64,000 nucleotides of DNA. Origin: an uncultured Candidatus Saccharibacteria bacterium. Lineage in GTDB: Bacteria > Patescibacteriota > Doudnabacteria > UBA920. Made by a program: the position numbers and the translations under genes. Where the stretch lies: positions 124,951 to 188,950 of the forward strand of contig CAZHIA010000001.1 in NCBI GenBank assembly GCA_964532425.1, read 5' to 3'. The notes beneath the pieces were generated by a model, which was given only the letters and a program-made list of their open reading frames with translations, made no database searches and had not been told where the DNA came from. Each line of letters opens with the position of its first letter. Position 1 is the first letter of the stretch. Of this stretch, positions 265 to 36,405 are shown one piece after another.

Positions 265-1569
265 ATGGGCCTGGTAATTTCAAAAAAAGATCGGCCTATC
301 ATCAAGTCCCTTCTTGATACCGACTTCTATAAGGATACCATGGGAAAACTGATACAACGTCGGTTTCCCAAGGTTCCCGTGAAGTTCGCGTTCAAGAACC
401 GACACAAGCATGTCCGTCTAGCCGAATGCATAGACCAAGGCGAACTGCGCGAGCAGCTTGATCACTGCATGAAGCTTCGCTTCTGCCCTCAAGAAATCCA
501 TTATCTGCTGGGCACCTACGAATACAACCGGCCGATGTTCGGGCTGGACTACGGCAAGTTCATGCAGGACTTCCGACTGCCGGAATATCACCTGGAAACC
601 AGGGACGGGCAGCTACATTTGGAGTTTTTCGGTGAGTGGCAATATGTGACTCGCTGGGAGACTTTGGCGATGCAGATCGTTGCCGAGCTCTACGGACGGC
701 ATCAATTGCGTGGCTTGTCCCGGTTCGAGCGGGAAGTGGTATTTGCCGAAGGGCGGCGACGGTTGGCGAGGAAGATTAAAGTCCTTAAAGCCAATCCGAA
801 CATTGTATTCTCTGACTTTGGAACCCGCAGGCGGTTCAGTCGTAGGTGGCAGCAGTATGTGGTCTCGGTCCTTGCGCAGGAATTTCCCCGGCCGAGCGCG
901 TTCGTGGACCATCCACAGTTTCGCGGCACATCCAACACGTGGTTGGCCATGAAGTACGGGCTGACCCCCATGGGAACCAATGCCCACGAACTGCCCATGG
1001 TCTACTCCGCTATCTTCCGTAAGGAAGACAATGCGGCCCAGCGGCTCGTTTCCCAAATCAAGATGCTCGAAGACTGGGAAACGGAGTATGGCGAGGGTCT
1101 GTCGATCTTCCTGCCGGATACCTATGGCAGCGACTACTTCTTTAACAACATTCCGGTTGAAATGATTGCGCGCTGGAAAGGCTCGCGTCACGATTCCGGA
1201 CCGGCTATGGAATACGGCGACAAGCGAATCCCGATGTATCGCGACATGGGAGTCGATCCGGCCAAGAAGATTATCGTGTTTGCGGACGGACAGGATCCGT
1301 GGCAGGCTGACTCCATCGAGAAGTACTTCCGCGGTCGGATCATCCCGTCGTTCGGTATTGGTACCAACTTTACCAACGATTTGGGATTTACCTCGGAAGT
1401 TGATCTTAAAGCCCTGTCGATCGTTGTAAAAGTGATCGAAGCGTGTGGTCTCCCGGTGTGCAAGCTTTCCGATAATATCGAGAAGGCGATCGGCAACCCG
1501 GCAGAGATCGAGCGAATGAAACAGTTGGTTGGCTACGGCGTGACCTACGCCGAATCCTGCCGCTACTGA
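265..1569 (+). CDS. pncB: nicotinate phosphoribosyltransferase (NAPRTase)
   Basis: 434 aa. N-terminal LLDTDFYKDTM, DFGTRRRFS, GTSNTWLAMKYGLTPMGTNAHE, RHDSGP, SFGIGTNFTND and C-terminal KLSDNIEKAIG all match the PncB/NAPRTase family blocks in the same order as E. coli PncB. AAGGAGG RBS sits 5 nt upstream of the ATG. Confidence 0.85.
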   Translation: MGLVISKKDRPIIKSLLDTDFYKDTMGKLIQRRFPKVPVKFAFKNRHKHVRLAECIDQGELREQLDHCMKLRFCPQEIHYLLGTYEYNRPMFGLDYGKFMQDFRLPEYHLETRDGQLHLEFFGEWQYVTRWETLAMQIVAELYGRHQLRGLSRFEREVVFAEGRRRLARKIKVLKANPNIVFSDFGTRRRFSRRWQQYVVSVLAQEFPRPSAFVDHPQFRGTSNTWLAMKYGLTPMGTNAHELPMVYSAIFRKEDNAAQRLVSQIKMLEDWETEYGEGLSIFLPDTYGSDYFFNNIPVEMIARWKGSRHDSGPAMEYGDKRIPMYRDMGVDPAKKIIVFADGQDPWQADSIEKYFRGRIIPSFGIGTNFTNDLGFTSEVDLKALSIVVKVIEACGLPVCKLSDNIEKAIGNPAEIERMKQLVGYGVTYAESCRY

Positions 1570-1630
1570 CAATCACTGAAGTAAAAACCCGTGGTGGCTC
1601 GGCTTACCAGCCGCGCCACCACCCATTTCT

Positions 1631-1686
1631 GAAGCGCTCCATAATTATAGATTGGAGCGCTGCAGAGAGGGATATAAGGAGGATTA
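1631..1686 (+). promoter_or_regulatory. operator-like inverted repeat AGCGCTCCA-N11-TGGAGCGCT followed by GCAGAGAGGGA and RBS
   Basis: Perfect 9-bp inverted repeat at 1633-1641 / 1653-1661, directly upstream of the AAGGAGGA RBS of the 1687 gene. The same architecture recurs at 2211-2288. Confidence 0.5.
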
Positions 1687-2154
1687 ATGGTAGGAGTAAT
1701 TCTGATTTACCATAAGGGAGATCCGGAGATGAAGGGGTTAAGCCCTGATTGCAGGGTGTTGCAGTTCCCTGATGCTGATGAAGATAACCAGTATCAGGTG
1801 CCACAGCATATCCTGGAAGGGTCATGTGTTGTGGATTTTCAAGCCCAGGTCAAGGCATATATGTTGTGGAAGCATAACTTCCCAATGAGTGGGGACCGGC
1901 TGGTACATTTTGGGCCGAAAGCTACCACTCATTCAGAGCATGGTGTTGGCGTTGTGGTGTTTACATACCGCCTCACAGACGAAGAAGCTTCTCGTTTTGG
2001 TACTTTTGGTTCTGATGGTGCAAATGAGTCTGACCATCAGGTCGACACCTCAGCTCTCCCTCCGATGTTTTGCCGGATCAAGGCTGTGCTTGACGATCCG
2101 ATTACGACATTGGAGGCCCTTGGCGCAATCACGTATGGCCTGCTTCGATCTTAG
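1687..2154 (+). CDS. hypothetical small protein, member of a 5-paralog family in this block
   Basis: 155 aa. N-terminal beta-strand MVGVILIYHKG resembles the N-termini of the ORFs at 4107 and 4650 (GVVVIVYSPG / GSVVIIYVRGEP). Strong RBS. No catalytic motif recognised. Confidence 0.5.
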   Translation: MVGVILIYHKGDPEMKGLSPDCRVLQFPDADEDNQYQVPQHILEGSCVVDFQAQVKAYMLWKHNFPMSGDRLVHFGPKATTHSEHGVGVVVFTYRLTDEEASRFGTFGSDGANESDHQVDTSALPPMFCRIKAVLDDPITTLEALGAITYGLLRS

Positions 2155-2210
2155 GCCGGGCAAGCGGATCTGCATAAAACTAGCGGTCTCCCTTAGAGAG
2201 ACCGCCCCAT

Positions 2211-2288
2211 TCTCAAGCGCTCCACTCTGATGCTATCTAGTATCATAGTGTGCGGTGAAGCGCTGCAGAGAGGGAAAGAAGGAGGAAC
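2211..2288 (+). promoter_or_regulatory. second copy of operator-like inverted repeat (AGCGCTCCAC ... GTGAAGCGCT) + GCAGAGAGGGA + RBS
   Basis: Same motif order as 1631-1686, upstream of the 2289 gene. The spacer contains the extra palindrome CTATCTAGTATCATAG. Confidence 0.45.
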
Positions 2289-2639
2289 ATGACAGAAGTA
2301 GCCGTGGTAATCCACACTACCGCGTTTCATAAGAGCGGTGTGGAAGTTGTATTTGTACGCGAAAACGAGCGGGAAGTGTTGCCCGCATTCGCTACAGAGT
2401 CGGAGCAGCCGGAAGATCTCGTCCGTTTGGCGGTAGAAAGGATAAGAGAACTTACCGGTACGGAACTCGGAAGACAGTTCTTTTTGTCTCACCGATTGCC
2501 TCCGAACGCAAACTACAATCGGCGCACGGTGTTGTTTTTTGAAGGGCGCGTGCTGGATGCGGGAAGAGCACCGGTGGTCTACAAATCGGTGAGCGAAGTT
2601 CCCGCCGAAATCTGGCGGGCTATTGCCGAGATACGATAG
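2289..2639 (+). CDS. hypothetical small protein with degenerate Nudix-box-like segment
   Basis: 116 aa. VAVVIHTTAF...VVFVRENE beta-strands followed by LPAFATESEQPEDLVRLAVERIRELTG, which aligns to the Nudix box GX5EX7REUXEEXGU with several catalytic Glu replaced. Confidence 0.5.
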   Translation: MTEVAVVIHTTAFHKSGVEVVFVRENEREVLPAFATESEQPEDLVRLAVERIRELTGTELGRQFFLSHRLPPNANYNRRTVLFFEGRVLDAGRAPVVYKSVSEVPAEIWRAIAEIR

Positions 2640-2657
2640 ATCTTTCAGGAGGAAGCG

Positions 2658-3098
2658 ATGGAATTTTACGTGGTTGCCTTCCGGCGGCCTGAGCCCGGGG
2701 TCCAGCTTATTGATCCGGATACGGACATTCTGTTCGTGGCGATTGATGAAAGCAAATTCGAGTTGCCCTGCTACTCTGTGGGTGAACAGTTGGCCGATGA
2801 TGAGTTAAAAAGCGCTGCCGCCAAATATTTCGCCGAAAGTACCGGACTTGCCTTTGAACCGCATCGCTTTGAGTTCGTCTGGCGGCGGCTCAAAGAAAAC
2901 GACCGCGACATGATCGCCATTTGCTCGCTGGAACTGTCGGGTGGAGAAGGAACTGACGTTCAGCGCCTGATCGACGCGCCGGATTCCGCACGTGCATATT
3001 TTATCCCGTTTGCAAACTTTCTATATTTTGCGGGGTACGATATGCAGTCAGCGGGCATTATTACTACCGCCCTCGCGTATTTTCATACGCAGGGCTAA
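2658..3098 (+). CDS. hypothetical small protein with degenerate Nudix-box-like segment
   Basis: 146 aa. FYVVAFRRPEPG...ELPCYSVGEQLADDELKSAAAKYFAESTGL fits the Nudix fold topology and box spacing, but REUXEE is replaced by KYFAES. Confidence 0.5.
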   Translation: MEFYVVAFRRPEPGVQLIDPDTDILFVAIDESKFELPCYSVGEQLADDELKSAAAKYFAESTGLAFEPHRFEFVWRRLKENDRDMIAICSLELSGGEGTDVQRLIDAPDSARAYFIPFANFLYFAGYDMQSAGIITTALAYFHTQG

Positions 3099-3111
3099 TC
3101 CATGACAAACA

Positions 3112-3204
3112 GCGGCCTGGCGAAGTGCACCAGGCCCCCTTACCAGAATTCTTCATACTGCAATACTGCACCGTATTGCAGTATCGAGAATTGCGGTAAG
3201 GAGG
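3112..3204 (+). repeat. structured intercistronic element, copy A (GC hairpin - CCCCTTACCAGA - hairpin - GAGAATTGCGGTAAGGAG)
   Basis: Hairpin GGCCTGGCGAAGTGCACCAGGCC, then CCCCTTACCAGAATT, then hairpin ATACTGCAATAC/GTATTGCAGTAT, then GAGAATTGCGGTAAGGAG. Three further copies at 4505, 5037 and 6195. Confidence 0.7.
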
Positions 3205-3207
3205 GAA

Positions 3208-4064
3208 TGAAAATGACAGGAGGATTTCTAAGAGATTGGTTGTTGCATCTCATCTGGCACAACGAGATGCCGAGTGACTTGGTGCTCGTACGCCACGGCG
3301 AGAGCGAAGGCAACAAGACCAAAAACGAGCAGGAATGGTTTAACCACCCTGAGTTCGCCAAACGGCACAGTTCCGATTGGCGGCTGACCGACAAAGGCCG
3401 CTGGCAGCGGAACGAGGCTGGGTTGTGGATCCGCCAGAATATTCTACCGGTCATTCCCGGTAAGAAGTTCTACCGCCACTACACCTCCAACTATGTTCGC
3501 GCCATGGAAACAGCCGGCGGACTGGGGCTTAATGCCGAATGGTTTGTCCACTTCTTCCTGCGCGAGCGGGACTGGGGCTGGCTCGATGTGATGTCCAAGG
3601 AGCAGCGCCAAAAGTTGTTCCCACGGGAGTTGGAATGGATGAAAATAGGCGGGTTCCTGACCGCGCCGCCCAACGGCGAATCTTTGGCGGACTTGTGCAT
3701 CCGCGGGTATTTGATGAACAATACACTCGGTCGCGAGTGCGCCCGCAGGCCGGTCATAATGGTCAACCATGGCGAGTTCATGTGGGGCGAACGGGTACTG
3801 CTCGAACGGATCCCGCTCGACCGGTATCGGTTACTCGATGAATCGAAAGACCCCAAGGATCGTATCCATAATTGCCAGATTCTCTGGTACACTCGGCGCG
3901 ATCCGGTGTCCGGAAAGCTGGCTAAGTATTTCAAGTGGATGAAGTCGGTCTGTCCGTGGGACCTTTCGCTTTCTCATAACGAGTGGCGGGAAATTGAACG
4001 TCCGCGCTTCAGTGATGAAGAACTCTTAGCGCGGGCCGAAGCGATTCCACAGATCGTGAGTTAG
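3208..4064 (+). CDS. histidine phosphatase (phosphoglycerate-mutase-like) family protein
   Basis: LVLVRHGESEGN (codons 3291-3302) is the catalytic RHGE signature of the histidine phosphatase superfamily. Start moved to the ATG at 3208 (MKMTGG) just after the AAGGAGGG RBS. The listed ORF start at 3102 would read through the repeat element. Confidence 0.65.
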
Positions 4065-4106
4065 AGTCGCTATTCTGAAACGGGATAAAACTTGATCGGA
4101 GGTTGT

Positions 4107-4484
4107 ATGGAAGGTGTTGTTGTAATAGTCTATTCCCCCGGTAACACCCGGTATGGGCCAGGGCGAGATGCCGGTGAATGCGGAACGATGGTGTATTTGA
4201 ATCATCCTCCGGAACAGTTGTCTACCTTCGAAGCTGCATGCCTCGAAGAAGCGAGGGATCTCGCGGCGGAGATCGGCCGCACGTGCCTCCAGCGGGAATG
4301 CGGGATTCTCCCGTATACAGTCTATGATGCCACTATGTGGCTGTTCAGGATCGAGTTGGGTAACCAGGAGTTTGATCAGTTGCCTGACGAGGTCAAATGG
4401 AACTTTGTTTCGTTCAATCGCTTGCGAGCGATACCGGGCTTCGAGGCGGCATGGGATCATGTCCGTGCCGCGGTCGAAGACTAA
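4107..4484 (+). CDS. hypothetical small protein, paralog of the 4650 ORF
   Basis: Start set to the ATG at 4107 (MEGVVVIVYSPG), 7 nt after a GGAGG RBS. The ORF-track start at 4092 is TTG. TFEAACLEEARDLAAEIG parallels LFEAFSRQEAIERATQIG in the next paralog. Confidence 0.5.
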   Translation: MEGVVVIVYSPGNTRYGPGRDAGECGTMVYLNHPPEQLSTFEAACLEEARDLAAEIGRTCLQRECGILPYTVYDATMWLFRIELGNQEFDQLPDEVKWNFVSFNRLRAIPGFEAAWDHVRAAVED

Positions 4485-4504
4485 ACTCCAACCAATCGTA
4501 TACA

Positions 4505-4596
4505 AGCGGTGGCAACATGCTGCCACCGCCCCTTACCAGAATTGTTGATACTGCAGTACTGCACCGTACTGCAGTATGGAGAATTGCGGCAAGGAA
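4505..4596 (+). repeat. structured intercistronic element, copy B
   Basis: AAGCGGTGGCAACATGCTGCCACCGC hairpin, then CCCCTTACCAGAATT, then hairpin ATACTGCAGTAC/GTACTGCAGTAT (G:C where copy A has A:T at the same stem position), then GAGAATTGCGGCAAGGA. Confidence 0.7.
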
Positions 4597-4649
4597 AAGA
4601 GGTTTCTGCTTAATCATTTTTCCTTAAAGATGTTAGCGAAGGAGGATTT

Positions 4650-5018
4650 ATGATAGGGAGTGTAGTGATCATTTATGTGCGGGGGGAACCCCACCATTGT
4701 CGCCTCGGGTATGATGAGGTGGCAGGGGTCCTGCTGAACGGTCCTGAATGTCCAGTGGACCTGTTTGAAGCCTTTTCCCGGCAGGAAGCGATAGAGCGCG
4801 CGACCCAAATCGGCCGGCAGCGCCTCGGCGTTGAACCGCCAAGGCCGTATCTGATGGCTGATATGGAACGGTGGGCGTTCCGGATCGTTCTCGGGGACAG
4901 AGAGTTTAGCGCAATAGGCGAGGATGTACAGAGACAATTCGTCTCATATGACCATCCGCCTCAATGGCTGAGGACCAGCATCTGTTCAAAGCTGGTGCAA
5001 GAGGCCAGCGAAATGTAA
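4650..5018 (+). CDS. hypothetical small protein, paralog family
   Basis: 122 aa. AGGAGGA RBS. N-terminal MIGSVVIIYVRGEP. Similar to the 4107 ORF. Confidence 0.5.
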   Translation: MIGSVVIIYVRGEPHHCRLGYDEVAGVLLNGPECPVDLFEAFSRQEAIERATQIGRQRLGVEPPRPYLMADMERWAFRIVLGDREFSAIGEDVQRQFVSYDHPPQWLRTSICSKLVQEASEM

Positions 5019-5036
5019 CACTCACAACGAAGCGGT

Positions 5037-5127
5037 GGCAGCATGCTGTCACCGCCCCTTACCAGAGTTTTCCACTCTATTACACTCCCGTAATAGAGTA
5101 TGGAAAATTGCGGCAAGGAGAAATCCT
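5037..5127 (+). repeat. structured intercistronic element, copy C
   Basis: GAAGCGGTGGCAGCATGCTGTCACCGC, then CCCCTTACCAGAGTT, then a hairpin of entirely different sequence (CTCTATTAC / GTAATAGAG), then GGAAAATTGCGGCAAGGAG. Hairpin structure is kept while its sequence is replaced. Confidence 0.7.
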
Positions 5128-5173
5128 TGAAGAGTTTACAGAAGCTTGAAAATTTCCAAACAGGAGGAATAAG

Positions 5174-6154
5174 ATGTCGACAGATATCCTACCCGTACTG
5201 AACGGGAACGGCAAGCAGGCGATTGCTCACGGGAGTGGCCAGATGCGCGCCCAGAGCATTTCCATTCAGGTTTCCTCGCGCGTCCGCTGTAACGCGGGCT
5301 GCAAGTTTTGCATTTCGCGAACCACGCCGGACTGCGCAGAGGGTAGCGGGAAGGACCTTACATGGTGTGATCTTGAACGGCTGAGAGTGGGGCTGAATTA
5401 TGCCAGCCACATTGGGGCAACTCACGCGATACTGACCGGCCGTGCCGATCCGACACAAGAGACTTCGGAGTACCTGTGTGAGCTCGTCAAAGCGGCCCGG
5501 GAGCACGTGCCCTTTGTTGATATGCATACGAATGGATTTTTGCTTCTGCCGGGAAGTTCGAAAGCTGGCATGCTTGACGACCTGGCGGCTGCCGGGCTGA
5601 CCCATCTCACGCTTTCCATCGCTGCTATTGACCGGGCGAAGAATCGCGAGCTGATGCTGGTCCGGGATAGCGGGCTCTCTCTCATTCGCTATGCGGTAAA
5701 ACTCGGTTTACTCGTCCGCGCTTCGCTGGTTGTTAACAAAAGCGGGGTATGCGACGTGCCCAGCCTGATCGAATATATCTGGCAAGCCGGCGAATACGGG
5801 GCACATATGGTTGTGGTCCGCGAAGTCTGGGTTCCCGAAGTATACAGCCAGATCAACGAGGAAGTATATGCCTGGAACCGGGAAAACTACGTGGACATTA
5901 AGCCCCTGCAGGATGAATTCATGCGGCTGGCCGAGCAGCGCCGGCATGGCCTGCGACGGCTGAATGATCTACCCTGGGGGACACCGGTGTTTGCCATGGA
6001 GGGGATATTCGAGAGTGATCCCTCTCACGGAGTGAATGTAACGTTTGCCCGGTGTGACGAGGCCAATGTCGGGTCGGTCATGAAATCGATCGTCCACCGG
6101 CCGAACGGCCATGGCTATCGCAACTGGGACAGCATGGGCGACATCTTGTATTAA
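5174..6154 (+). CDS. radical SAM enzyme, subfamily unresolved
   Basis: 326 aa. CNAGCKFC gives the CX3CX2C cluster (Cys codons 5288, 5300, 5309). Downstream LTGRADPTQ (GGEP-like) and HTNGFLL (TNGxLL) fit the radical-SAM core. No SPASM or extra Cys cluster at the C-terminus. GGAGGA RBS. Confidence 0.75.
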   Translation: MSTDILPVLNGNGKQAIAHGSGQMRAQSISIQVSSRVRCNAGCKFCISRTTPDCAEGSGKDLTWCDLERLRVGLNYASHIGATHAILTGRADPTQETSEYLCELVKAAREHVPFVDMHTNGFLLLPGSSKAGMLDDLAAAGLTHLTLSIAAIDRAKNRELMLVRDSGLSLIRYAVKLGLLVRASLVVNKSGVCDVPSLIEYIWQAGEYGAHMVVVREVWVPEVYSQINEEVYAWNRENYVDIKPLQDEFMRLAEQRRHGLRRLNDLPWGTPVFAMEGIFESDPSHGVNVTFARCDEANVGSVMKSIVHRPNGHGYRNWDSMGDILY

Positions 6155-6194
6155 GATCTGTGTGGTAACTTGGCTCTGCCAAGTTATCCAATCA

Positions 6195-6395
6195 AGCGGT
6201 GGCAGCATGCTGCCACCGCCCCTTACCAGAGTTTTCAGTGAGTATGTCATTGCGAGTCAAAGAAATTTTTAGTAATAAATTTCTTCGACGAAGCAATCTT
6301 TCCTGTAACGGTACAAGATTGCCGCGGCCTCATATTGAATTCTAAAAATATGAAGCCTCGCAATGACGACGACATTGAAAATTGCGGTAAGGGAT
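6195..6395 (+). repeat. structured intercistronic element, copy D, with a ~120-bp nested insertion
   Basis: AAGCGGTGGCAGCATGCTGCCACCGC, then CCCCTTACCAGAGTTTTCAG, then [6246-6366 insert], then GACGACATTGAAAATTGCGGTAAGGGA. The short hairpin seen in copies A-C is replaced by a 121-bp structured insert. Confidence 0.65.
6246..6366. repeat. MITE-like structured element X (GTCATTGCGAG ... CTCGCAATGAC termini), second copy at 13569..13684
   Basis: 11-bp terminal inverted repeats GTCATTGCGAG/CTCGCAATGAC, an inner inverted repeat AAGCAATCT/AGATTGC, and internal AAAGAAATTT...AAATTTCTTT hairpins. The same termini and inner blocks occur at 13569-13684. Confidence 0.6.
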
Positions 6396-6453
6396 GATGC
6401 AGTAGGGAAGTAATCATTCCAGGCAGTTTAAAAATACGACAGGGGGAAATTAT

Positions 6454-7395
6454 ATGAGCATTATTCTGTTTGCTGCGCGCCAGGCGCAGAAAATGGCGCA
6501 GGAAATTATCGATATCGGCAGAGGATCTATTGTTCCTGGTACCATCAAATGGGACCGGTACGATGGCGTTTGGGCTAATACGGTCATCGAGAACGCCGAA
6601 TCTTTGCGTAACCGAGATGTGGCTTTCTTAGCCGCATACGAGACCATGGCAGATATTATCGAACAACAGTGGGCACTGAATACGCTCACGCGTCGGTACA
6701 AGGTTCGGTCCATGAAAATGTTGTTGCTCGATTACCCGACTGGCACCAAGGATCGCTGGGAAGAAGAGGGAGAAGTGGTAACGGCGTTCGAGCTGGCTGA
6801 CGGTATGGGCACTATTGCCCAGACGAAGTCTGGCCCGATCGATCTCGGCATATTTGACCTGCATGCACTGCAGGAGGAGAGCTACTTTCCTAAGAACTTC
6901 CGGCCGCCAGACCGCTTGAGCGCCATGCCGCTTTTGTGCGACATGATCGGCGGGTATGACGATATCAGTATTGTCTTTCCCGACGAGGGCGCATACAAGC
7001 GGTACGCTAAGCGCAACTTCAAGGGCTTCGACCAGGTTGTGTGCGAAAAGCGCCGCATCGGAAAAGATCGAATCGTCACCATAAAGGAAGGTGACCCGAA
7101 AGGTCGCCATTGCTACATAGTCGACGACCGTATTATTTCCGGGGTTACCGCCGTGAAGTGCAAGGATGCGTTATTCAGTGCGGGTGCTGCCGCGGTCAGC
7201 TTGTATGTGGGGCATGGCGCTTTCACGACCAACGCGCCGCAAAAGTTCATCGACTCGGGATTTTCGGAAGTCTGGTTTTCGGACTCGTGCCCGGCGATGG
7301 CGGAAAAACTTCGGGGTGTCGGGCAATTCAAGATCATGCCACTCGCCCACGAAGCTGCCAACTGGATTTTGGAAGATACTCGCCAGGCCGCCTAA
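6454..7395 (+). CDS. ribose-phosphate pyrophosphokinase (PRPP synthetase) family protein, divergent
   Basis: 313 aa. DLHALQEESYFP matches the Prs DLHAxQIQGFF block. IVFPDEGAYKR matches VVSPDIGG. YIVDDRIISGVT corresponds to the PRPP-binding loop VDDMIDTGGT, with TGGT replaced by SGVT. Length is typical for Prs. Confidence 0.65.
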   Translation: MSIILFAARQAQKMAQEIIDIGRGSIVPGTIKWDRYDGVWANTVIENAESLRNRDVAFLAAYETMADIIEQQWALNTLTRRYKVRSMKMLLLDYPTGTKDRWEEEGEVVTAFELADGMGTIAQTKSGPIDLGIFDLHALQEESYFPKNFRPPDRLSAMPLLCDMIGGYDDISIVFPDEGAYKRYAKRNFKGFDQVVCEKRRIGKDRIVTIKEGDPKGRHCYIVDDRIISGVTAVKCKDALFSAGAAAVSLYVGHGAFTTNAPQKFIDSGFSEVWFSDSCPAMAEKLRGVGQFKIMPLAHEAANWILEDTRQAA

Positions 7396-7422
7396 AAGCG
7401 CCGGAGAAACAGGAGAAAAATC

Positions 7423-9366
7423 ATGCCTGATTATGGATACATTCGCGTTGCGGCAGTGAGCCCGAAGGTGCACGTCAGCGATCCATATAAGAATATGGAA
7501 GAAATGCTTGCGTGGATCGGGCGGATCAGCAAGGAGAACGTACAGCTTGCGATATTTCCCGAGCTCGGGATGACCGGCTACACATGCAAGGACTTGTTCT
7601 TGCAAACGTGGCTGCAACAGGAGTCGCGAAAAGCCCTGGAGACGCTGGTGGCTGAAACTCGCGACTTGGACATGGTCATTCTGGTTGGTGCTCCGCTGAA
7701 GATCGACGACCAGCTATTCAACGTTGCGGTCGCCATTCAAGACGGACAGGTACTCGGGGTCGTCCCAAAGACGCATCTCCCCGGTTATAAGGAGTTTGAA
7801 GAACGCCGCTGGTTCGCGCCGGCGGCCCGCTTAAAGAGCAAAACCGTGCTTCTTGGCGGCAAGCGGGTTCCGGTCGGAACCAATTTGGTATTTGAGTCGG
7901 CGCAGGTCGAGGATTTCAAGTTCGCGATCGAGATCTGTGAAGATCTGTGGATGCCCATCCCGCCCAGCTCCCACCATTGCCTGCACGGCGCGACGGTGTT
8001 GTGCAATCTTTCGGCTTCAAACGAAGTCGTAGGAAAAGCCAGTTACCGCCGTAAGCTGGTGGAAAGCCAGTCGGCACGCTGTGTTGCGGGATATGTGTAC
8101 AGTTCCTGCGGCGATGGCGAATCAACCTCGGATGTCGTGTTTTCCGGGCACTGCATAGTTGCCGAGAATGGGAACATCATCATGGAGTCGGAGCGCTTCA
8201 AGCGCGGTGGCGACATGGTGATAACCGATCTCGATGTGGAGCGGCTCGTCCGCGAACGCATAATGACTGATAGCTTCGGAGATGCGATCGCGGCGGAAAC
8301 CGCGGAATACATCCACATCCCGTTTGATACCGTCAGACTCGATGTGGAAACGGATTTCCGCAGGACCATCAACCCGGACGTGTTCATTCCTTCTGATCCG
8401 CGTTTGCGCGATGAAGTGTGCCAAGAAGTTTTCAACATCGCGACAATGGGTCTGGGCCATCGGCTTGAAGAAGTGTTCGGCGGCAAGGATCCTAAAGTAA
8501 ACGTGGGTGAGTCGGGTGGTCTTGACTCGTTGCTTTCATTGTTCATTATCGACGAGACCTACGACCGCTGGGGATGGGACAAGAGCGGTATTAACGCTGT
8601 GACAATGCCCGGACCTGGAACGTCCGCCCGCACTCTGGGAAACGCCAAGGGGATTTGTGAAGCCTTGGGCATCGGCCTCAAGATTATCGACATCACCGAG
8701 GATGTGACCCGGCATCTCGAACACATCGGACATTCGCCTGCTTGCATGGACTGCCTGCAGTGCGAAAATGCCCAAGCCCGCGAACGGACCCAGATCTTGA
8801 TGGATTTGGGCTTTACCGTGGGTACGGGAGACCTGTCCGAGGGGTTCATTGGCTGGATGACGTATAACGGCGACCATATGAGCAACTACAACCCCAACTG
8901 CAGTATTCCGAAAACGTTGGTGAAGTATGTTGTTCTGTGGAAGGCTGACCAGTATGAAAAAGCCGGTAACCTTGCTGCGGCACAGAGAGCCCGGGATATC
9001 GCGGCGACGCCAATCTCCCCCGAACTGCGTAAGTTGGGAGAGGGGGGAGTCATCGCGCAAAAATCCGAAGAAGAAAATGGTCCGTATCGGGCTGTTGAAT
9101 TTTTCGGATCGAGCATGCTCCGCTACGGCATTCCGCCCGAAAAGATTTTCTTTTTGGCGCGGCAGGCCTTCAAGAACGACTACAACCGGGACGGGCTGTT
9201 GGCCTGGCTGAAAAAGTACATCTGGAAGTTCTTCCGCAACCAGTTCAAGCGTGATGCGGCGCCGGATGGGGCCAAGGTTGGTACGGTAGCCTTGTCGCAG
9301 CGCGGTGATCTGCGGCTGGCCTCGGATGTCAATCCGAAGCCTTGGGTAGATTCGCTTCCGGACTGA
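7423..9366 (+). CDS. nadE: glutamine-dependent NAD(+) synthetase
   Basis: 647 aa. N-terminal CN-hydrolase/nitrilase domain (IRVAAVSPKVHVSDPYKN...FPELGMTGYTCKDLF). C-terminal NAD-synthase domain with the ESGGLDS P-loop (codons 8509-8529). Confidence 0.9.
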   Translation: MPDYGYIRVAAVSPKVHVSDPYKNMEEMLAWIGRISKENVQLAIFPELGMTGYTCKDLFLQTWLQQESRKALETLVAETRDLDMVILVGAPLKIDDQLFNVAVAIQDGQVLGVVPKTHLPGYKEFEERRWFAPAARLKSKTVLLGGKRVPVGTNLVFESAQVEDFKFAIEICEDLWMPIPPSSHHCLHGATVLCNLSASNEVVGKASYRRKLVESQSARCVAGYVYSSCGDGESTSDVVFSGHCIVAENGNIIMESERFKRGGDMVITDLDVERLVRERIMTDSFGDAIAAETAEYIHIPFDTVRLDVETDFRRTINPDVFIPSDPRLRDEVCQEVFNIATMGLGHRLEEVFGGKDPKVNVGESGGLDSLLSLFIIDETYDRWGWDKSGINAVTMPGPGTSARTLGNAKGICEALGIGLKIIDITEDVTRHLEHIGHSPACMDCLQCENAQARERTQILMDLGFTVGTGDLSEGFIGWMTYNGDHMSNYNPNCSIPKTLVKYVVLWKADQYEKAGNLAAAQRARDIAATPISPELRKLGEGGVIAQKSEEENGPYRAVEFFGSSMLRYGIPPEKIFFLARQAFKNDYNRDGLLAWLKKYIWKFFRNQFKRDAAPDGAKVGTVALSQRGDLRLASDVNPKPWVDSLPD

Positions 9367-9406
9367 GAGAAACATTGAGAAAGGGGGATACGTAGGAGTA
9401 ACATCG

Positions 9407-9448
9407 ACCGCTCCGGTCGCCAGAAATGGCGGCTGGGGCGGTTTTTTT
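9407..9448 (+). terminator. rho-independent terminator after nadE
   Basis: GC-rich imperfect hairpin CCGCTCCGGTCGCC...GGCGGCTGGGGCGG followed by TTTTTTT (9442-9448). Confidence 0.5.
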
Positions 9449-9508
9449 ATGGCGGATAAAGGATTTAAGATTTAGGATTAAGGTTTTAGGTAGGGGGCTG
9501 TTTATCTG

Positions 9509-9537: not shown

Positions 9538-9564
9538 ATGGGGAGCAGAAGACAAAAAATTTTT

Positions 9565-10292: not shown

Positions 10293-10934
10293 ATGAACTA
10301 TACAAAAGCTATCCTGATCGGTGTCATACTGATTATCTTATTGGCGGTTATAACCAGGATTATGAAACCAAAACCTCCTTTGGAGGCAACCAATGTACCT
10401 ATCAGAAAAGATGCCACGGTTGTCGCATTTGGCGACAGTTTGGTATGGGGGTTCGGATCCTCCGCCGGGAAAGATTTTGTTTCATTGCTTTCCAGTCGCC
10501 TCGGTGTCCCCATCATCAATGCCGGTAAGAATGGCGACACTACTGCCAGCGCCATGCAGCGGCTGGATGCCGATGTCTTGTCCAAACATCCGGATATTGT
10601 AATTGTGCTGCTCGGGGGAAACGACGCGCTTCAGCAGGTGCCTATTGACCAGACTTTTGCCAACCTGTCGGATATAATCGACCGTATTCAGGGTAGCGGA
10701 GCCAAGGTATTACTGCTCGGGGTGCGCGGTAGTTTGCTTGATGATGTCTACCGTACGAGGTTTGACCAACTGGCGAAAGATAAAAACGTGGCGTATGTAC
10801 CGGATATCCTACAAGGCCTGTTCGGGCATTCGGATACCATGTATGATTTTATCCATCCCAACGACAAAGGGTATGCCGAAATTGCCGATAGGGTAGAGCC
10901 GGTCTTGCGTACGCTGCTACGTTCAGGCCGCTGA
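10293..10934 (+). CDS. SGNH/GDSL hydrolase (arylesterase/lipase-like)
   Basis: N-terminal TM/signal, then VVAFGDSLVWGFG (GDSL block I), then GKNGDTT (block II), GGNDA (block III) and a distal DxxHP block (FIHPNDKGY). Confidence 0.8.
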   Translation: MNYTKAILIGVILIILLAVITRIMKPKPPLEATNVPIRKDATVVAFGDSLVWGFGSSAGKDFVSLLSSRLGVPIINAGKNGDTTASAMQRLDADVLSKHPDIVIVLLGGNDALQQVPIDQTFANLSDIIDRIQGSGAKVLLLGVRGSLLDDVYRTRFDQLAKDKNVAYVPDILQGLFGHSDTMYDFIHPNDKGYAEIADRVEPVLRTLLRSGR

Positions 10935-13526: not shown

Positions 13527-13568
13527 TGGTACTTTCCTCCGAAACTGGGGTAATAGCCGGTCGTGATT

Positions 13569-13684
13569 GTCATTGCGAGGAGGTAAGGGCCTTATCTTAC
13601 CGACGAAGCAATCTTAAATTTGACACGATTAGATTGCCTCGCCAAAGAAATTCATTGCTAAAAATTTCTTTGGCTCGCAATGAC
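13569..13684. repeat. MITE-like structured element Y (second copy of the 6246..6366 element)
   Basis: GTCATTGCGAG ... CGACGAAGCAATCT ... AGATTGCC ... CTCGCAATGAC in the same order as element X. Variable arms keep their hairpins (CCAAAGAAATT...AATTTCTTTGG). Confidence 0.6.
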
Positions 13685-13896
13685 AAAGCGCAAGCTTATT
13701 CTGAGTTTCTATCATTAAGTGATTTTTACTGGCCAATTGTAGCAAGGTTTAAAAAATTATTCTACAAACCTTTTCAAATTTTTTTGGTTCAGCTTACCAT
13801 TAAGCCGGAAAAAATTTTTTAAAATTGCTGATCATGGCATGGGTGCGGGCCCATCAAGAATCCAGGATTCCCTTTAAGGGGGCTTGTGGAGGCGGT

Positions 13897-13949
13897 CCTG
13901 CCTGCCGGTCATCGACTCCGAGATCGCTCAGACTCGAGGAGCAGGCAGG
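13897..13949. repeat. 53-nt GC-rich hairpin element (CCTGCCTGC...GCAGGCAGG), copy 1
   Basis: CCTGCCTGCCGGTCATCGACTCCGAGATCGCTCAGACTCGAGGAGCAGGCAGG. The reverse complement of 35488-35541 matches it with about 4 mismatches. Flanked by small CCCTTTAAGGG / CCCTTCAAGGG palindromes. Confidence 0.6.
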
Positions 13950-14066
13950 CGCGACCGCCCCCTACGAGTAATGAAGTCCCCGGAAGGTTCCCTTCAAGGG
14001 CGCTCGCGTGCTCGACGCAATTCCACTCTCGGGGTATACTAGGGGTGCATAATTACAAGGAATTGT

Positions 14067-14294
14067 ATGATCAAAAAGATTTTTAAAACCGGCCATAGCC
14101 TGGCGGTCACCCTGGCCTCCTCCCAGTTGAAGGAGCTTGGGCTTAAGATGGGGGATAGTGTCACGGTCGACCTGGACAAGGCCAGTGGTTGCATTGTAGT
14201 CCGTCCCGGAAATAAGCCGTCGCAGCTGGTGCTGGATTTAAAGACACGGCCGGTGTTGGGGCAAAGTAGAATTGAGCAAAATTTAAAAAATTGA
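14067..14294 (+). CDS. AbrB/MazE (SpoVT_AbrB) family small DNA-binding protein, orphan
   Basis: 75 aa. MIKKIFKTGHSLAVTL...LGLKMGDSVTVDL is the typical swapped-hairpin AbrB/MazE N-terminal domain. No toxin-like partner adjacent. Confidence 0.55.
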   Translation: MIKKIFKTGHSLAVTLASSQLKELGLKMGDSVTVDLDKASGCIVVRPGNKPSQLVLDLKTRPVLGQSRIEQNLKN

Positions 14295-14410
14295 CAGAAT
14301 TGACAAAATTACACTGCAGTATTCTCCTCCTTTTAGGAGGAGTACCTCGCAAAGCGAGGGGAAGTGGTAAAAATTTTGTCAATTTTGCTCAATTTTGTCA
14401 TTTTTGTCAA
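14291..14410. repeat. TTGACAAAA inverted-repeat array E1 (TTGACA[GA]AAT x2 - CTGCAG core - TTTTGTCA x4)
   Basis: Direct TTGACAGAATTGACAAAATT on the left, reverse-complement TTTTGTCAATTTTGCTCAATTTTGTCATTTTTGTCAA on the right. The centre contains CTGCAG and two small hairpins (CTCCTCC/GGAGGAG and CCTCGC/GCGAGG). Related arrays at 24476 and 25955. Confidence 0.6.
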
Positions 14411-18147: not shown

Positions 18148-18164
18148 AACCCGGTTCCGGACTG

Positions 18165-18202
18165 CAACGTTAATCGTTCGCGGCCGCGAACGATTAACGT
18201 TG
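18165..18202. repeat. perfect 38-bp palindrome CAACGTTAATCGTTCGCGGCCGCGAACGATTAACGTTG
   Basis: Perfect dyad symmetry with a GCGGCCGC core. No T-run. Lies between the GNAT gene and the Memo-like gene. Confidence 0.6.
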
Positions 18203-18345
18203 TACAGAACCATGGCCATGTGGTTCGGTTTTCGTGGTGACAGTGGCAGGGGCGGATTACAGACCCATCCCTGCAAAAACACAATGACCCGCTTTGATTA
18301 TCCGGAGCGGGTTTTAATGTTACAATAGAAAAGGCGAATACGTAT

Positions 18346-25951: not shown

Positions 25952-25954
25952 GTA

Positions 25955-26036
25955 ATTGACAAAATTTTAAAAATTGACAAAAATGACAAAAATTAACTGC
26001 AGTTTGGTTTCCTATTTTTGTCATTTTTGTCAATTA
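25955..26036. repeat. TTGACAAAA inverted-repeat array E3
   Basis: ATTGACAAAATTTTAAAAATTGACAAAAATGACAAAAATTAA-CTGCAG-TTTGGTTTCCTATTTTTGTCATTTTTGTCAATTAA. Confidence 0.55.
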
Positions 26037-26047
26037 ACTAATGTTTT

Positions 26048-27704: not shown

Positions 27705-27844
27705 TCCACAATATATCGAATCTACGAATAGAACGAATCAACGAATAACTACGAAATTTCGAATTCGTTGATTCGTAGTCCTTCGCAGATTCGTCAAATT
27801 CGCAGATTCGATATATTCATACGTTTGTCATTCTTATTTCTTAA

Positions 27845-34063: not shown

Positions 34064-34107
34064 ATTCGAGAGCAGAGTTGGTAGTGAGTAGTTTATAGTT
34101 TATAGTA

Positions 34108-34147
34108 AACACCGCCTGACTGTATGGTCAGGCGGTGTTTTGGTTTT
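34108..34147 (+). terminator. rho-independent terminator
   Basis: AACACCGCCTGAC-TGTATG-GTCAGGCGGTGTT hairpin followed by TTGGTTTTG. Confidence 0.7.
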
Positions 34148-34149
34148 GA

Positions 34150-35690
34150 ATGCCCTTTGCGCAAAAATCGACGCTCAAATTTGCCATTAGAAAGGAGTTT
34201 TTATGGGTCTTGGTAGATTGAGTAGCTCCTTAAATTATCGTTTGAGGGCAGTAAGTTTGGCGGTAGGCATACATGTTGTTCTGTTTGCGGTAGGACAAGG
34301 GGAGATTTGGTTTGCTGATGCATATTCGTATAATGAAATGAACATCGCTGTCCTTGCTCGCAAGATTTGTAGATTGAACAGACTTACCTGAAATTCGTCG
34401 TGGCCGGAGTGCAAAAATCACAGCCGATAATTAAATTTTATACTTGCAAATGTATAGGGGAATGGAAGGCGAGTGTACAGTGCTGGTGTGACTGAGGTAA
34501 ATATTTTGTTAACACTATTGAACAGAGTGCCAGGTGAATCCCTCTCCTATCTTTCAGGTGGGTGCGTTGCGTAAAGCACGTAAGGAGAGAAATCTTGCTG
34601 AGTAGATTTCAGTCTTCGTCTGAGAGAGTAGAAAGATATCCGCTGGGGGCAAATATTATTACATAATCGGAACGGTTCAATTGTAACCCAACTTTTGCAT
34701 TTGTAAATATTTATTATTTGAGATATGGGCAAGAGGACGTTGCATCATCTGATGATGTATGAATAAATTTCGTCCCTACAAAACACATCCCGACAACTGT
34801 CCGAGGATTCTGTGCAGGAGCAAGCGACAGCTGCCCGCTCCCATTCTGATTGTTAAATTTTTGCGGGCGGATCCAACCTTCGCATGAACCTTCCTTCTTC
34901 GCTTAAGCTATGGAGGACAAGTCGGCGGACACGGTAAGTCCATGCACCATCCGATGGTGCATGGATAAATCTCCCCCCTGTACATATGACGGTGATCGCG
35001 CATGTGTCTCTTGCTCCCTGTAGGGACGAGCGATGGCTGTCCGATTAACCTACAGTGTAACTGTGATGGGCTGATTAATGCGGCCCCTCTATAAACAAAT
35101 TACTGATCACTCCAGTGCAGGAGAGTATTTTTTCCCCGCCATGGCTTTCCCGTCCGACAAAGCTTTTTGACCGTCAGTAGTTTTAACGGAGGAGGGTAGC
35201 GATGATAGGAAGCGACGGTGGGAGTCGCCCTCTAACAGCTTTACATCGGATCCGTTACGGGCGCATGAATGCGGCCTCTACAGAATACATACCGATGATC
35301 GTAAAGATGTTCCTTGTTCCTTGTAGGGGCAAGCGGCAGCTGCCCGTCCCGTTGGAGTTGATACCATGGTGATACGGGCGGGTCTAGTCACGAGCGGATG
35401 AATCCTGCCCTGCTGACTACATATTGATAACCCCTGAAGTGTAGGGGTGTGCTTTCTTGTCTACCAAGACTTTTTGACTGTCCATAGCCCTGCCTGCTCC
35501 TCGAGTCTGAGCAACCTCGGAGTCGAAGACCGGCAGGCAGGTTCATGCGAAGGGTATTGCGACGGGGCGGGAGCTGTCCGCACTCATCATGTATCAGGTG
35601 CTATAACCGGGCGGACTTATTAAATCCATACAACATCTAATGGTTGATGGATAAACCTCACCCCTACGCTGTGAGTAGTTCCTCCTTTTT
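34150..35690. other. 1.5-kb non-coding region with degenerate ~40-bp direct repeats and multiple hairpins; candidate ncRNA(s)/regulatory array
   Basis: No ORF over 65 aa. Repeats at 34814-34842, 35008-35043 and 35311-35351 (consensus TCTTGYTCCYTGTAGGGRCAAGCGRCAGCTGCCCGTCCC). AATGCGGCCYCTCTAYA motif at 35076 and 35263. Hairpins CATGCACCATCCGATGGTGCATG (34941-34963), GCATCATCTGATGATG (34743-34758) and ATCCATACAACATCTAATGGTTGATGGAT (35625-35653). Confidence 0.5.
35488..35541. repeat. 53-nt GC-rich hairpin element, copy 2 (inverted relative to 13897..13949)
   Basis: CCTGCCTGCTCCTCGAGTCTGAGCAACCTCGGAGTCGAAGACCGGCAGGCAGG. Its reverse complement differs from copy 1 at about 4 positions. Confidence 0.6.
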
Positions 35691-36400
35691 TGATTTGCAA
35701 GTTACCTAAATTTTCAGTCTAAAAAATGGAAAAAATTTGTGGATAACAGCAATTATAACATGCAAAATTTGAGGGTCGTAAGAAGGCATTTCAAGAGAGA
35801 TTAGGGAGTAGTATAAATAGTTAAAGATAAAAAAGCCTAACAAACATGAGACCTCAGAGTGGCGTGTAACATATGAAATTGAGAATTGCTCTTTCACTGA
35901 GAAGTAAAGCTTGAAACAAGAACTATCGTGCTTTATTTAAAGAATCTAAGTTTAAAATTAAAAGTATAATGAATCTAAATTCTATAAAATACTGAGGAAA
36001 ATATTTTTGTGGTAACACAGTTGTAACGAAGTTTCATAATGTAGCAAGTACTACCATTCCGGTGTCATTCATTTTATGAACTGCGACAATATACCTAAAA
36101 AACGTATTTAAAAAATCACACATTAATCTCTCTTATGAGATTGTTGGGGATTTTTAGATCTTTTCTGATCAAAAAATCAGCACGGGTTATGGCTAGATGA
36201 AACAGCATTTTTAACTCTCAAATCGCTGTTATTTTGCAATTCAATTTTGAAAGGAAAAATTGTTCATATTTTTGTCCAATAATTTTCTTAACGGTATAAT
36301 TTAAATATGAATATCGGGTATCCGAGAAATGCGAAAAAGACCTATAAACATAATGTATTTTAAAAGGCCAGTAGTTCAGAGACAGACAGGAAACTAACAC
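35690..36400 (+). promoter_or_regulatory. ~700-bp strongly AT-rich leader upstream of the giant gene, with a candidate promoter TTGTCC-17-TATAAT at 36271..36299
   Basis: Composition shifts sharply from ~50% GC to AT-rich. TTGTCC (36271-36276), 17-bp spacer ending CGG, TATAAT (36294-36299), about 105 nt upstream of the GTG start. Confidence 0.45.
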
Positions 36401-36405
36401 CTCAC

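Follow-up and report, generated by a model that had tools for sequence, protein, structure and literature searches.

Which kind of element is repeated between the genes of an operon for nicotinamide adenine dinucleotide (NAD) metabolism in an uncultured bacterium, always on the gene strand and always with its parts in the same order? The operon lies within a 64,000-nt stretch of contig CAZHIA010000001.1 (assembly GCA_964532425.1, positions 124,951 to 188,950 of the forward strand), hereafter the window. It forms one string of + strand genes at 265-9366 and hosts, in its spacers, all six copies of a two-part element. Each copy, here called a module, consists of a GC-rich hairpin (H1) and an abutting hairpin (H2) that pairs a pyrimidine tract with a Shine-Dalgarno (SD)-like purine tract below a variable apex. 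Orthologous NAD operons of about 20 other genomes from the candidate phyla radiation (CPR) carry three to seven modules each. Judged from these sequences, the modules represent a previously undescribed family of intercistronic elements, probably acting as RNA, that is specific to the NAD-metabolism operons of a CPR clade.

In the window, the operon starts with a NAPRTase gene, followed by module E1, a 155-aa open reading frame (ORF), module E2, ORFs of 116 and 146 aa, module A, a histidine phosphatase gene with a 125-aa ORF, and module B. A 122-aa ORF, module C, a gene for a radical-SAM protein, module D and the genes for a phosphoribosyl pyrophosphate (PRPP)-synthase-like protein and NAD synthase complete the series. 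H1 begins 13-41 nt past the preceding stop codon. The six modules fall into two sequence families of the same architecture, A to D forming family 1 and E1 and E2 family 2. The structured features of the operon are as follows.

1591-1622, + strand: H1 of E1, GTGGTGGC...GCCACCAC, starting 21 nt past the NAPRTase stop codon (dG -25.4)
1623-1671, + strand: H2 of E1 (family 2), CCCATTTCTG-A-AGCGCT(apex)AGCGCT-GC-AGAGAGGG, with the true SD AAGGAGG 5 nt downstream
2183-2205, + strand: H1 of E2, GCGGTCTC CCTTAGA GAGACCGC
2206-2274, + strand: H2 of E2 (family 2), arms as in E1 and a different apex
3114-3136, + strand: H1 of A, GGCCTGG...CCAGGCC
3138-3201, + strand: H2 of A (family 1), CCTTACC-AG-AATT..(apex)..AATT-GC-GGTAAGG
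4506-4529, + strand: H1 of B, GCGGTGGCAACATGCTGCCACCGC
4531-4594, + strand: H2 of B (family 1), 91% identical to A over 67 nt, with the true SD ~45 nt downstream
5032-5055, + strand: H1 of C
5057-5118, + strand: H2 of C (family 1), with an unrelated apex stem, CTCTATTAC/GTAATAGAG
5114-5129, + strand: small hairpin CAAGGA-GAAA-TCCTTG, overlapping the 3' arm of C and thus competing with the base of its H2
6196-6219, + strand: H1 of D, with an extra hairpin upstream at 6164-6188
6221-6393, + strand: H2 of D (family 1 arms), with a foreign insert in the apex
6246-6367, + strand: four-way-junction repeat of 122 nt nested in the apex of D, with ends GTCATTGCGAG...CTCGCAATGAC, unrelated to the module proper
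9406-9450, + strand: canonical terminator closing the module-bearing operon (9406-9443 plus T-run), a 17-bp stem with no second hairpin

A preceding sequence-only reading of this stretch had described four copies of a structured element with a shared order of parts, and the arms bear this out. The left arm CCCCTTACCAGARTT has exactly four exact matches (3136, 4529, 5055 and 6219) and so has the right arm GARAATTGCGGYAAGG (3186, 4579, 5103 and 6377), all on the + strand; the sole further matches are those of each arm to its own partner with 3 mismatches, i.e. the inverted repeat itself. Folding of A to D returned the GC hairpin followed by a long hairpin closed by CCUUACC/GGYAAGG, as had been described, with minimum free energies of -46 to -51 kcal/mol for A to C (z -7.1 to -7.8) and -96 kcal/mol for D (z -11.9), and no shuffled sequence folded as well. 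Above the closing stem, the H2 of family 1 has a 2x2 internal loop (AG/GC), an AAUU stem and the variable apex. The enclosing pairing of CTTACC with GGTAAG is present in all four copies, with an A.C mismatch in B and C (GGCAAGG). The compensatory changes that had been put forward hold in part. The A-U to G-C pair between the apices of A and B and the unrelated apex stem of C are there, but another difference between A and B, AAUUC to AAUUG, breaks a pair; one compensated pair and one replaced stem make a weaker case than claimed, and a weaker one than the comparison across genomes given below. Three details needed revision: copy C starts at 5032 and not at 5037; the 143-nt "variable hairpin" of D is no module part but a nested copy of the separate 122-nt repeat; and four copies are not the full set. 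Folding of every spacer of the region revealed E1 (1591-1671) and E2 (2183-2274), which had been missed and which show, after H1, the pattern CCCAUUYCUS-A-AGCGCU(apex)AGCGCU-GC-AGAGAGGG.

Outside the operon the arrangement is missing. Every spacer of the 64 kb was checked, and the two hairpins were found together in none beyond the operon, i.e. nowhere in the other 54 kb. Promoter and terminator scans detected strong sigma-70 matches and T-run terminators only outside the operon, among them a near-consensus promoter (TTGACA-17-TATACT at 9564) of the gene that follows it; inside, there is no comparable promoter or T-run terminator, and internal promoters in the module spacers were dismissed as none was convincing. 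Searches for the arms in other DNA gave chance matches: in metagenome contigs the two-arm pattern matched 16 times, never with the hairpin architecture, and in viral contigs the two-arm pattern had no match, the left arm by itself matching 46 times, each time singly and without a right arm. Since the metagenome matches lack the hairpins, the window's exact arms are private to its genome.

The architecture is shared far more widely. H1, pyrimidine tract, H2 and purine tract occur at orthologous spacers in the loci L048, L049 and L051 and in most of 24 genome loci (L052-L075), spread over Uhrbacteria, Falkowbacteria, Komeilibacteria and related groups. The closest relative is L048, with a radical-SAM protein 65% identical to that of the window, 39% identity at codon third positions and a GC content of 41% (52% in the window). 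Both spacers flanking its radical-SAM gene carry H1 and then CCUUACC...GGYAAGG, and a 20-nt block of copy C, GGCAAGGAGAAATCCTTGAA, in the spacer upstream of that gene, is identical in the orthologous L048 spacer despite the third-position identity of 0.39. Other loci have lineage-specific arms, e.g. CUUUCCACGAG...CUCGUGCCAAAGGAG, CUUUUCUCGAGC...GCUCAAGGAAAG or CUUUUCUCCAC...GUGAAGG. Within one genome all modules share the same arms and the apices differ between paralogous modules; L053 links arm variants, as it carries modules of the CCUUAC and the CUUUCC type in a single operon. Six modules punctuate the 11-gene NAD operon of L058, and five each occur at matching positions in L054, L057 and L060. 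L058 and L053 close the operon with a terminator that has a perfect T-run and no H2. Core genes of the NAD pathway recur in 16-20 loci in varying order; the order around the radical-SAM gene also varies among genomes, with modules at the junctions.

Covariation was assessed on 27 H2 hairpins from 16 loci, aligned by sequence only with MAFFT; the alignment supports a hairpin of 19 pairs. Paired cells amounted to 73.9%, compared with 57.0 +/- 1.3 in shuffled alignments (0 of 500 reached the observed value) and 39-54% in slid registers. Double changes were present in 17 of the 19 pairs, and the covariation score was 0.485 versus 0.214 in the control. The alignment contained no unpaired nucleotides conserved across lineages. 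Because a generic detector of hairpin pairs gave too much noise where loci are GC-rich, curated sets and a covariance model took its place. This model (R1), built from the relatives' H2 alignment, gave 87 matches at about 57 distinct sites in 497 kb of NAD loci, three to seven per operon and all on the operon strand, and no match in 486 kb of unrelated DNA. It misses all six window modules, whose arms are too different; the link between these and the modules of the relatives is drawn from architecture, position and the intermediates L048 and L053 with CCTTACC/GGYAAGG arms.

Conservation points in the same direction. Among L054, L055, L057 and L060, the radical-SAM proteins share 67-86% of their amino acids and the codon third positions 47-62%, and the region from H2 through the start codon is 91-96% identical. 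Between L055 and L060, the module and spacer downstream of the radical-SAM gene (78 nt) are 100% identical, at 59% third-position identity in NAD synthase. The H1 of the four loci are 43-50% identical, except for the identical ones of L054 and L055, and the 60 nt upstream of H1 44-55%. Nevertheless, H1 is a hairpin in 33 of 33 curated modules and ends -2 to +3 nt from the pyrimidine tract. H1 is therefore constrained in shape only, as terminators are, and H2 in both sequence and shape, at a level of conservation above that of the flanking enzymes. Because H2 covaries and is conserved far beyond synonymous sites, neutrality is ruled out for it, and the modules are selected, structured elements. 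The earlier proposal of a functional structure, as opposed to a coding sequence or a simple operator, is thus upheld by the covariation, the conservation and the same intercistronic positions in relatives.

How are the modules placed relative to gene ends and gene starts? The gap between stop codon and H1 has a median of 13 nt and is 6-17 nt in 30 of 47 cases, the same range as for ordinary terminators of these genomes. Across 62 modules, the 8 nt after H1 contain at least five T in 42 and at least seven pyrimidines in 58. On the gene strand, every module runs from stop codon through H1, pyrimidine tract and purine tract to SD. On their 3' side, modules are either compact (n = 29; H2 ends at most 18 nt before the start codon, its purine arm coinciding with or adjoining the SD) or extended (n = 32; 22-65 nt, with the purine arm as an SD-like decoy and the real SD further on). 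The predicted SD accessibility has a median of 0.19 in compact modules (p = 0.01), 0.26 in extended ones (p = 0.05) and 0.32 in other genes. In the window, the pyrimidine tract CCCCUUACC after H1 has decayed from a U-tract, and the 3' arm of H2 of copy A overlaps the SD AAGGAGG (3198-3204) of the histidine phosphatase gene, whose start lies at 3207 or 3213.

From these features we tentatively read the modules, with somewhat less than even confidence, as cis-acting RNA punctuation of the polycistronic NAD-metabolism mRNA that would set the expression of each cistron separately. H1 would be a hairpin of the intrinsic-terminator type, serving as a leaky terminator, as a 3' protector of the upstream segment, or as both. 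In most relatives, H1 with its U-tract probably ends a fraction of the transcripts and shields the 3' end of the upstream segment; in the window genome, where the U-tract has decayed, H1 probably acts mainly as a stabiliser or barrier. H2 would stack on H1 and pair the anti-SD-like pyrimidine tract, i.e. the terminator tail, with the SD-like purine tract, which, in copy A and in roughly half of the family, either constitutes or directly adjoins the true ribosome-binding site of the following gene. In read-through transcripts the next cistron would then start with a structured, partly masked initiation region, and each cistron would obtain its own setting of transcript abundance and translation. 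The sequences show the structure of the modules, their conservation and covariation, their confinement to the operon and their orientation; action in RNA, attenuation or stabilisation, and the modulation of translation are inferred here, the first from the orientation-specific order of stop codon, hairpin, tracts and SD. On this point the sequence-only reading had left RNA and hairpin DNA side by side. Only the orientation-dependent features favour sense-strand RNA, for the alignment holds 47 G.U and 47 A.C wobble cells and the wobble asymmetry was discarded as uninformative on RNA versus DNA or on the strand. Of the roles it had listed, processing or stability and translational control stay the best readings.

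Several observations weigh against such punctuation. The H1 of the window have 2-4 T in the following 8 nt and were not called by the terminator scan. Only copy A overlaps an SD; in the other five modules (B, C, D, E1 and E2) the true SD is located outside H2, and the predicted SD accessibility in the window is no lower than in control genes, so that masking explains copy A at most. Both strands of the modules fold about equally well, and the wobble counts are equal. Furthermore, a generic role in stability or tuning leaves the restriction to one operon unaccounted for, as well as an H2 that, loops and spacer included, stays 91-100% identical where synonymous sites are near saturation. In a relay model, the purine arm would exchange its partner for a pyrimidine box further downstream and so unmask the SD; tests over the whole family gave it no support (median z 0.08; p<=0.05 in 6 of 28). 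In the window and in L048, the module that precedes the radical-SAM gene keeps the alternative hairpin CAAGGA-GAAA-UCCUUG, and re-pairing of this kind may be possible only for B, C and D of the window and for L048.

The extreme constraint on H2 and its restriction to one operon suggest a specific trans-acting factor. H2 could be the operator of a dedicated regulator, an RNA-binding protein or, less likely, a small ligand, that gates every cistron on a signal from the NAD pathway, the arms differing between lineages as operator and factor co-evolve. We regard this as doubtful, yet as a serious rival to punctuation. It would fit the confinement to the operon in the window and in L058, the common arms of all modules of a genome, the block GGCAAGGAGAAATCCTTGAA shared with L048, and the contrast between H2 plus spacer (91-100% identity at third-position identities of 0.47-0.62) and H1 plus the preceding spacer (43-55%). 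The apices, however, differ among paralogous modules of one genome, and the operons contain no recognisable conserved RNA-binding protein, their shared families being enzymes and NrtR-like DNA-binding regulators; the lack of unpaired nucleotides shared across lineages speaks against a metabolite aptamer, and neither the NAD+ riboswitch classes nor any other Rfam family matched. The broadest version, namely that the modules are a new multi-copy class of riboregulators for NAD homeostasis in CPR bacteria, with H2 read by a lineage-co-evolving factor (a protein, or a ligand with tertiary contacts) that reports NAD-pathway status and gates each cistron at the RNA level beneath an NrtR-type transcriptional control, is somewhat less likely still. 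If H2 were instead a processing site of the RNase III type, cleavage would yield separate units, with H1 left as 3' protector and the purine/SD region freed at the 5' end. Its 19-30 bp duplex with small internal loops, located between cistrons and stacked on a second hairpin, suits this idea, as does the structure-only constraint on H1 expected of a 3' protector; by analogy with early RNA processing in phage T7 and the STAB-SD of Bacillus, the SD-like purine tract without a start codon in B, C and D may resemble a 5' stabiliser. Yet many H2 hairpins of relatives reach no more than about 17-19 bp and contain mismatches, the alternative hairpin predicted to follow cleavage lacks family-wide support, as in the relay test above, and the restriction to one operon is again left aside; processing by RNase III appears unlikely.

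The remaining explanations deny H2 a role in the transcript. Modules could be DNA-level repeats, akin to miniature inverted-repeat transposable elements (MITEs) or repetitive extragenic palindromic (REP) elements, or recombination sites, that spread within the operon and allow a cassette-like shuffling of genes, the RNA structure being incidental. The arms do look like terminal inverted repeats around a varying interior, both strands fold equally, another repeat has inserted in the apex of D, and the B, C and D copies of H1 are nearly identical although H1 evolves fast between species. The near-identity of these H1, together with the 91% identity of A and B in H2, indicates recent copying or gene conversion within the window genome. 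B and C flank the paralogous pair hyp125 and hyp122, the small ORFs peculiar to this lineage are found where modules are dense, most with a module on at least one side, and the variable gene order around the radical-SAM gene has modules at its junctions. Against mobility stand the stable positions (five modules each in L054, L057 and L060), the invariable co-direction with the genes in the fixed order of parts, and the lack of copies outside the operon in the 64 kb, in the 486 kb of unrelated DNA and in the metagenome scan. No target-site duplications are visible, B, C and D have no duplicated flanks, and a Pfam scan of the window (the 29 larger ORFs and the first 2000 aa of a giant ORF) found no tyrosine recombinase or integrase, transposase or RAYT. 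We therefore consider DNA repeats decidedly improbable. The sequence-only reading had held that copies with identical flanks, produced by recent duplication, would speak against a functional structure; recent copying is in part seen in the H1 of B, C and D, but the flanks are not identical. Least probable is that the modules are ordinary gene-end terminators with fortuitous hairpins, relics of separate transcription units with a functionless H2: the median of 13 nt from stop codon to H1 and the T tracts in 42 of 62 modules resemble those of terminators, but the covariation of H2 and its conservation far above synonymous sites disagree with a relic.

Membership in known repeat classes was considered separately. 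An integron attC site, as had been proposed along with a check for an IntI-like recombinase, found no support: the cores RYYYAAC/GTTRRRY are absent from the arms CCCCTTACCAGARTT/GARAATTGCGGYAAGG, no GTTRRRY is present at either boundary, no integrase occurs among the scanned ORFs, and the core genes belong to one conserved NAD pathway, though the genes differ in their order between loci and five small ORFs occur in the window genome alone. A Correia-like MITE was rejected, as inverted arms are present but neither duplicated flanks at B, C and D nor dispersed copies in the 64 kb outside the operon were found. REP elements occur in hundreds of copies genome-wide and are associated with RAYT transposases. 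Membership in the REP/BIME group (bacterial interspersed mosaic elements; REPIN) was likewise dismissed, with all six copies in one operon within 64 kb and no IS200/IS605-like RAYT transposase among the scanned ORFs of the window. Searches against Rfam, including the NAD+ riboswitch classes I and II, returned nothing at gathering score for the window and eight related loci, and only chance-level hits at a permissive threshold (E 0.23-5). Literature searches found no description of the module.

The 122-nt repeat in the apex of D has a second copy in the window at 13569-13684, in opposite orientation and with covarying side hairpins. It comprises a central GAAGCAATCT...AGATTGCC hairpin, and its four-way junction folds with z -6 to -7. 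Rfam gave no match for it, and a partial copy lies in L054 at 666-697 on the - strand. As the repeat is unrelated to the module, its position shows that the apex of H2 tolerates foreign insertion. Other repeats were noted in passing. Three long palindromes occupy further spacers of the window (25952-26047, 27705-27844 and 18163-18204); one has perfect 22-nt arms (AATTGACAAAAATGACAAAAAT), one is ~110 nt long and one is a hairpin with a 19-bp stem. In L049, a GC-rich palindromic insert (GGTAGCCGCGGGCTTTAGCC...GGCTAAAGCCTGCGGCTACC) adjoins modules in two operon spacers (4035-4272 and 7015-7185) and is probably another small repeat targeting module spacers. In both L049 (1526-1719) and L053 (2298-2457), the first gene of the operon is preceded by a motif GTGTATAT(W)(M)TACAGTAAG, with an NrtR-like gene adjacent in L049; this motif is a candidate NrtR operator, distinct from the modules.

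The window DNA is attributed to a bacterium of the CPR (Patescibacteria), not to a phage, because annotation assigns homologues of its radical-SAM protein to Uhrbacteria, Komeilibacteria, Falkowbacteria, Buchananbacteria and Parcubacteria; a collection of phage genomes showed no similarity to it. An 11-kb Logan contig (L047) is identical to the window sequence. The radical-SAM protein itself (5174-6154, with homologues in L048-L075) has no assigned role and is embedded in NAD salvage and biosynthesis operons of many CPR lineages, beside genes for NAPRTase, NMNAT/NAD kinase, NAD synthase, the PRPP-synthase-like protein, histidine phosphatase, ADP-ribosylglycohydrolase and Nudix/NrtR proteins. 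Its place among NAD genes suggests an undescribed step in NAD metabolism. The small ORFs of the operon are the following.

1687-2154, 2289-2639, 2658-3098, 4107-4484 and 4650-5018, + strand: five small ORFs with strong SD sites

They have no Pfam match and no homologue in 27 related loci, and are peculiar to the window genome. They sit in the module-rich part of the operon, most with a module on at least one side, and the homogenisation of modules within this genome coincides with their presence. Two of them, hyp125 (4107-4484) and hyp122 (4650-5018), are paralogues with 38% identity.

Nearly every gene of the NAD operon has a strong SD of the GGAGG type; the PRPP-synthase-like gene has AGGGGGAA instead, an unusual SD that is kept in the orthologous leader of L048. 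The leaders of this gene (6420-6451) and of the NAPRTase gene (208-239) have a 32-mer in common with 81% identity (GCAGTTTAAAAA..A.AGG.GG.AATT). Many genes outside the operon, among them those at 10293, 15294, 15799, 18346, 26508, 27845 and 33248, are without a recognisable SD sequence. The giant ORF mentioned above encodes 8734 aa (36406-62610, + strand) and has no Pfam match in its first 2000 residues. Stretches without an ORF of at least 80 aa span 13527-14394 (868 nt), which contains the second copy of the 122-nt repeat, and 34064-36405 (2342 nt). No tRNA or tmRNA was found in the window.

The uncultured CPR bacteria have very small genomes, and their post-transcriptional control is almost wholly unexplored. 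In these organisms, a module family that is not in Rfam occurs in 3-7 copies per metabolic operon, with an H2 more conserved than the enzymes it separates. The kind of element, a terminator hairpin combined with an SD-pairing hairpin, is known; what is new is that it combines the obligatory pairing of the terminator tail, the multi-copy use within one operon and the conservation of H2 above that of the enzymes. Should the modules only tune expression, a terminator tail and an SD mimic would here make up a clear natural case of operon punctuation. Recognition of H2 by a specific factor would reveal a new regulatory layer for NAD metabolism, in bacteria presumed to rely on hosts for their cofactors. 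In either case the module is a concrete, testable RNA of about 45-65 nt with clear designs for compensatory mutations.

Compared with known systems, the modules combine features of several. Integron attC sites are likewise imperfect inverted repeats with a variable centre and length that follow successive co-oriented ORFs. In contrast to them, the modules are without cores, belong to the operon of a conserved pathway and are linked to stop codon and SD in an orientation-specific manner that points to RNA. The NAD+ riboswitches (nadA motif, class I; pnuC motif, class II) share the association with NAD biosynthesis genes, and class I also has tandem stem-loops; the modules differ in being intercistronic and repeated where a riboswitch is a single 5' leader, in the absence of a match to the covariance models and in lacking unpaired nucleotides conserved lineage-wide. 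The pyr attenuators of Bacillus, bound by PyrR, are also RNA units repeated within one biosynthetic operon and also involve a terminator hairpin. There, however, the protein-binding and antiterminator structures precede the terminator, whereas the conserved hairpin of the modules follows it, a geometry by which a terminator/antiterminator switch was excluded; no PyrR-like protein was identified. Similar to the RNase III sites of the phage T7 early genes, the modules are repeated intercistronically along one transcript and contain an extended duplex that has internal loops and whose lower stem is conserved, but they would at most be putative cleavage sites, they always possess a separate upstream GC hairpin, and their host is a CPR bacterium. 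The compact modules and copy A resemble fourU-type and other SD-masking hairpins, in which a pyrimidine stretch pairs with a GGAG-type SD just upstream of the start; unlike in these, the pyrimidine stretch also forms the tail of a hairpin of the terminator type, and in most window modules it pairs with a decoy SD-like tract. With the enterobacterial REP/BIME of malE-malF and the puf hairpins of Rhodobacter, the modules share stable, co-transcribed hairpins soon after the stop codon, the first hairpin being constrained in structure only. They depart from both in their confinement to one operon and in the obligatory, strongly sequence-constrained H2 that pairs pyrimidine and SD-like tracts. By analogy, the module would thus work most like an intercistronic hairpin of the REP/BIME or puf type combined with an SD-masking hairpin.

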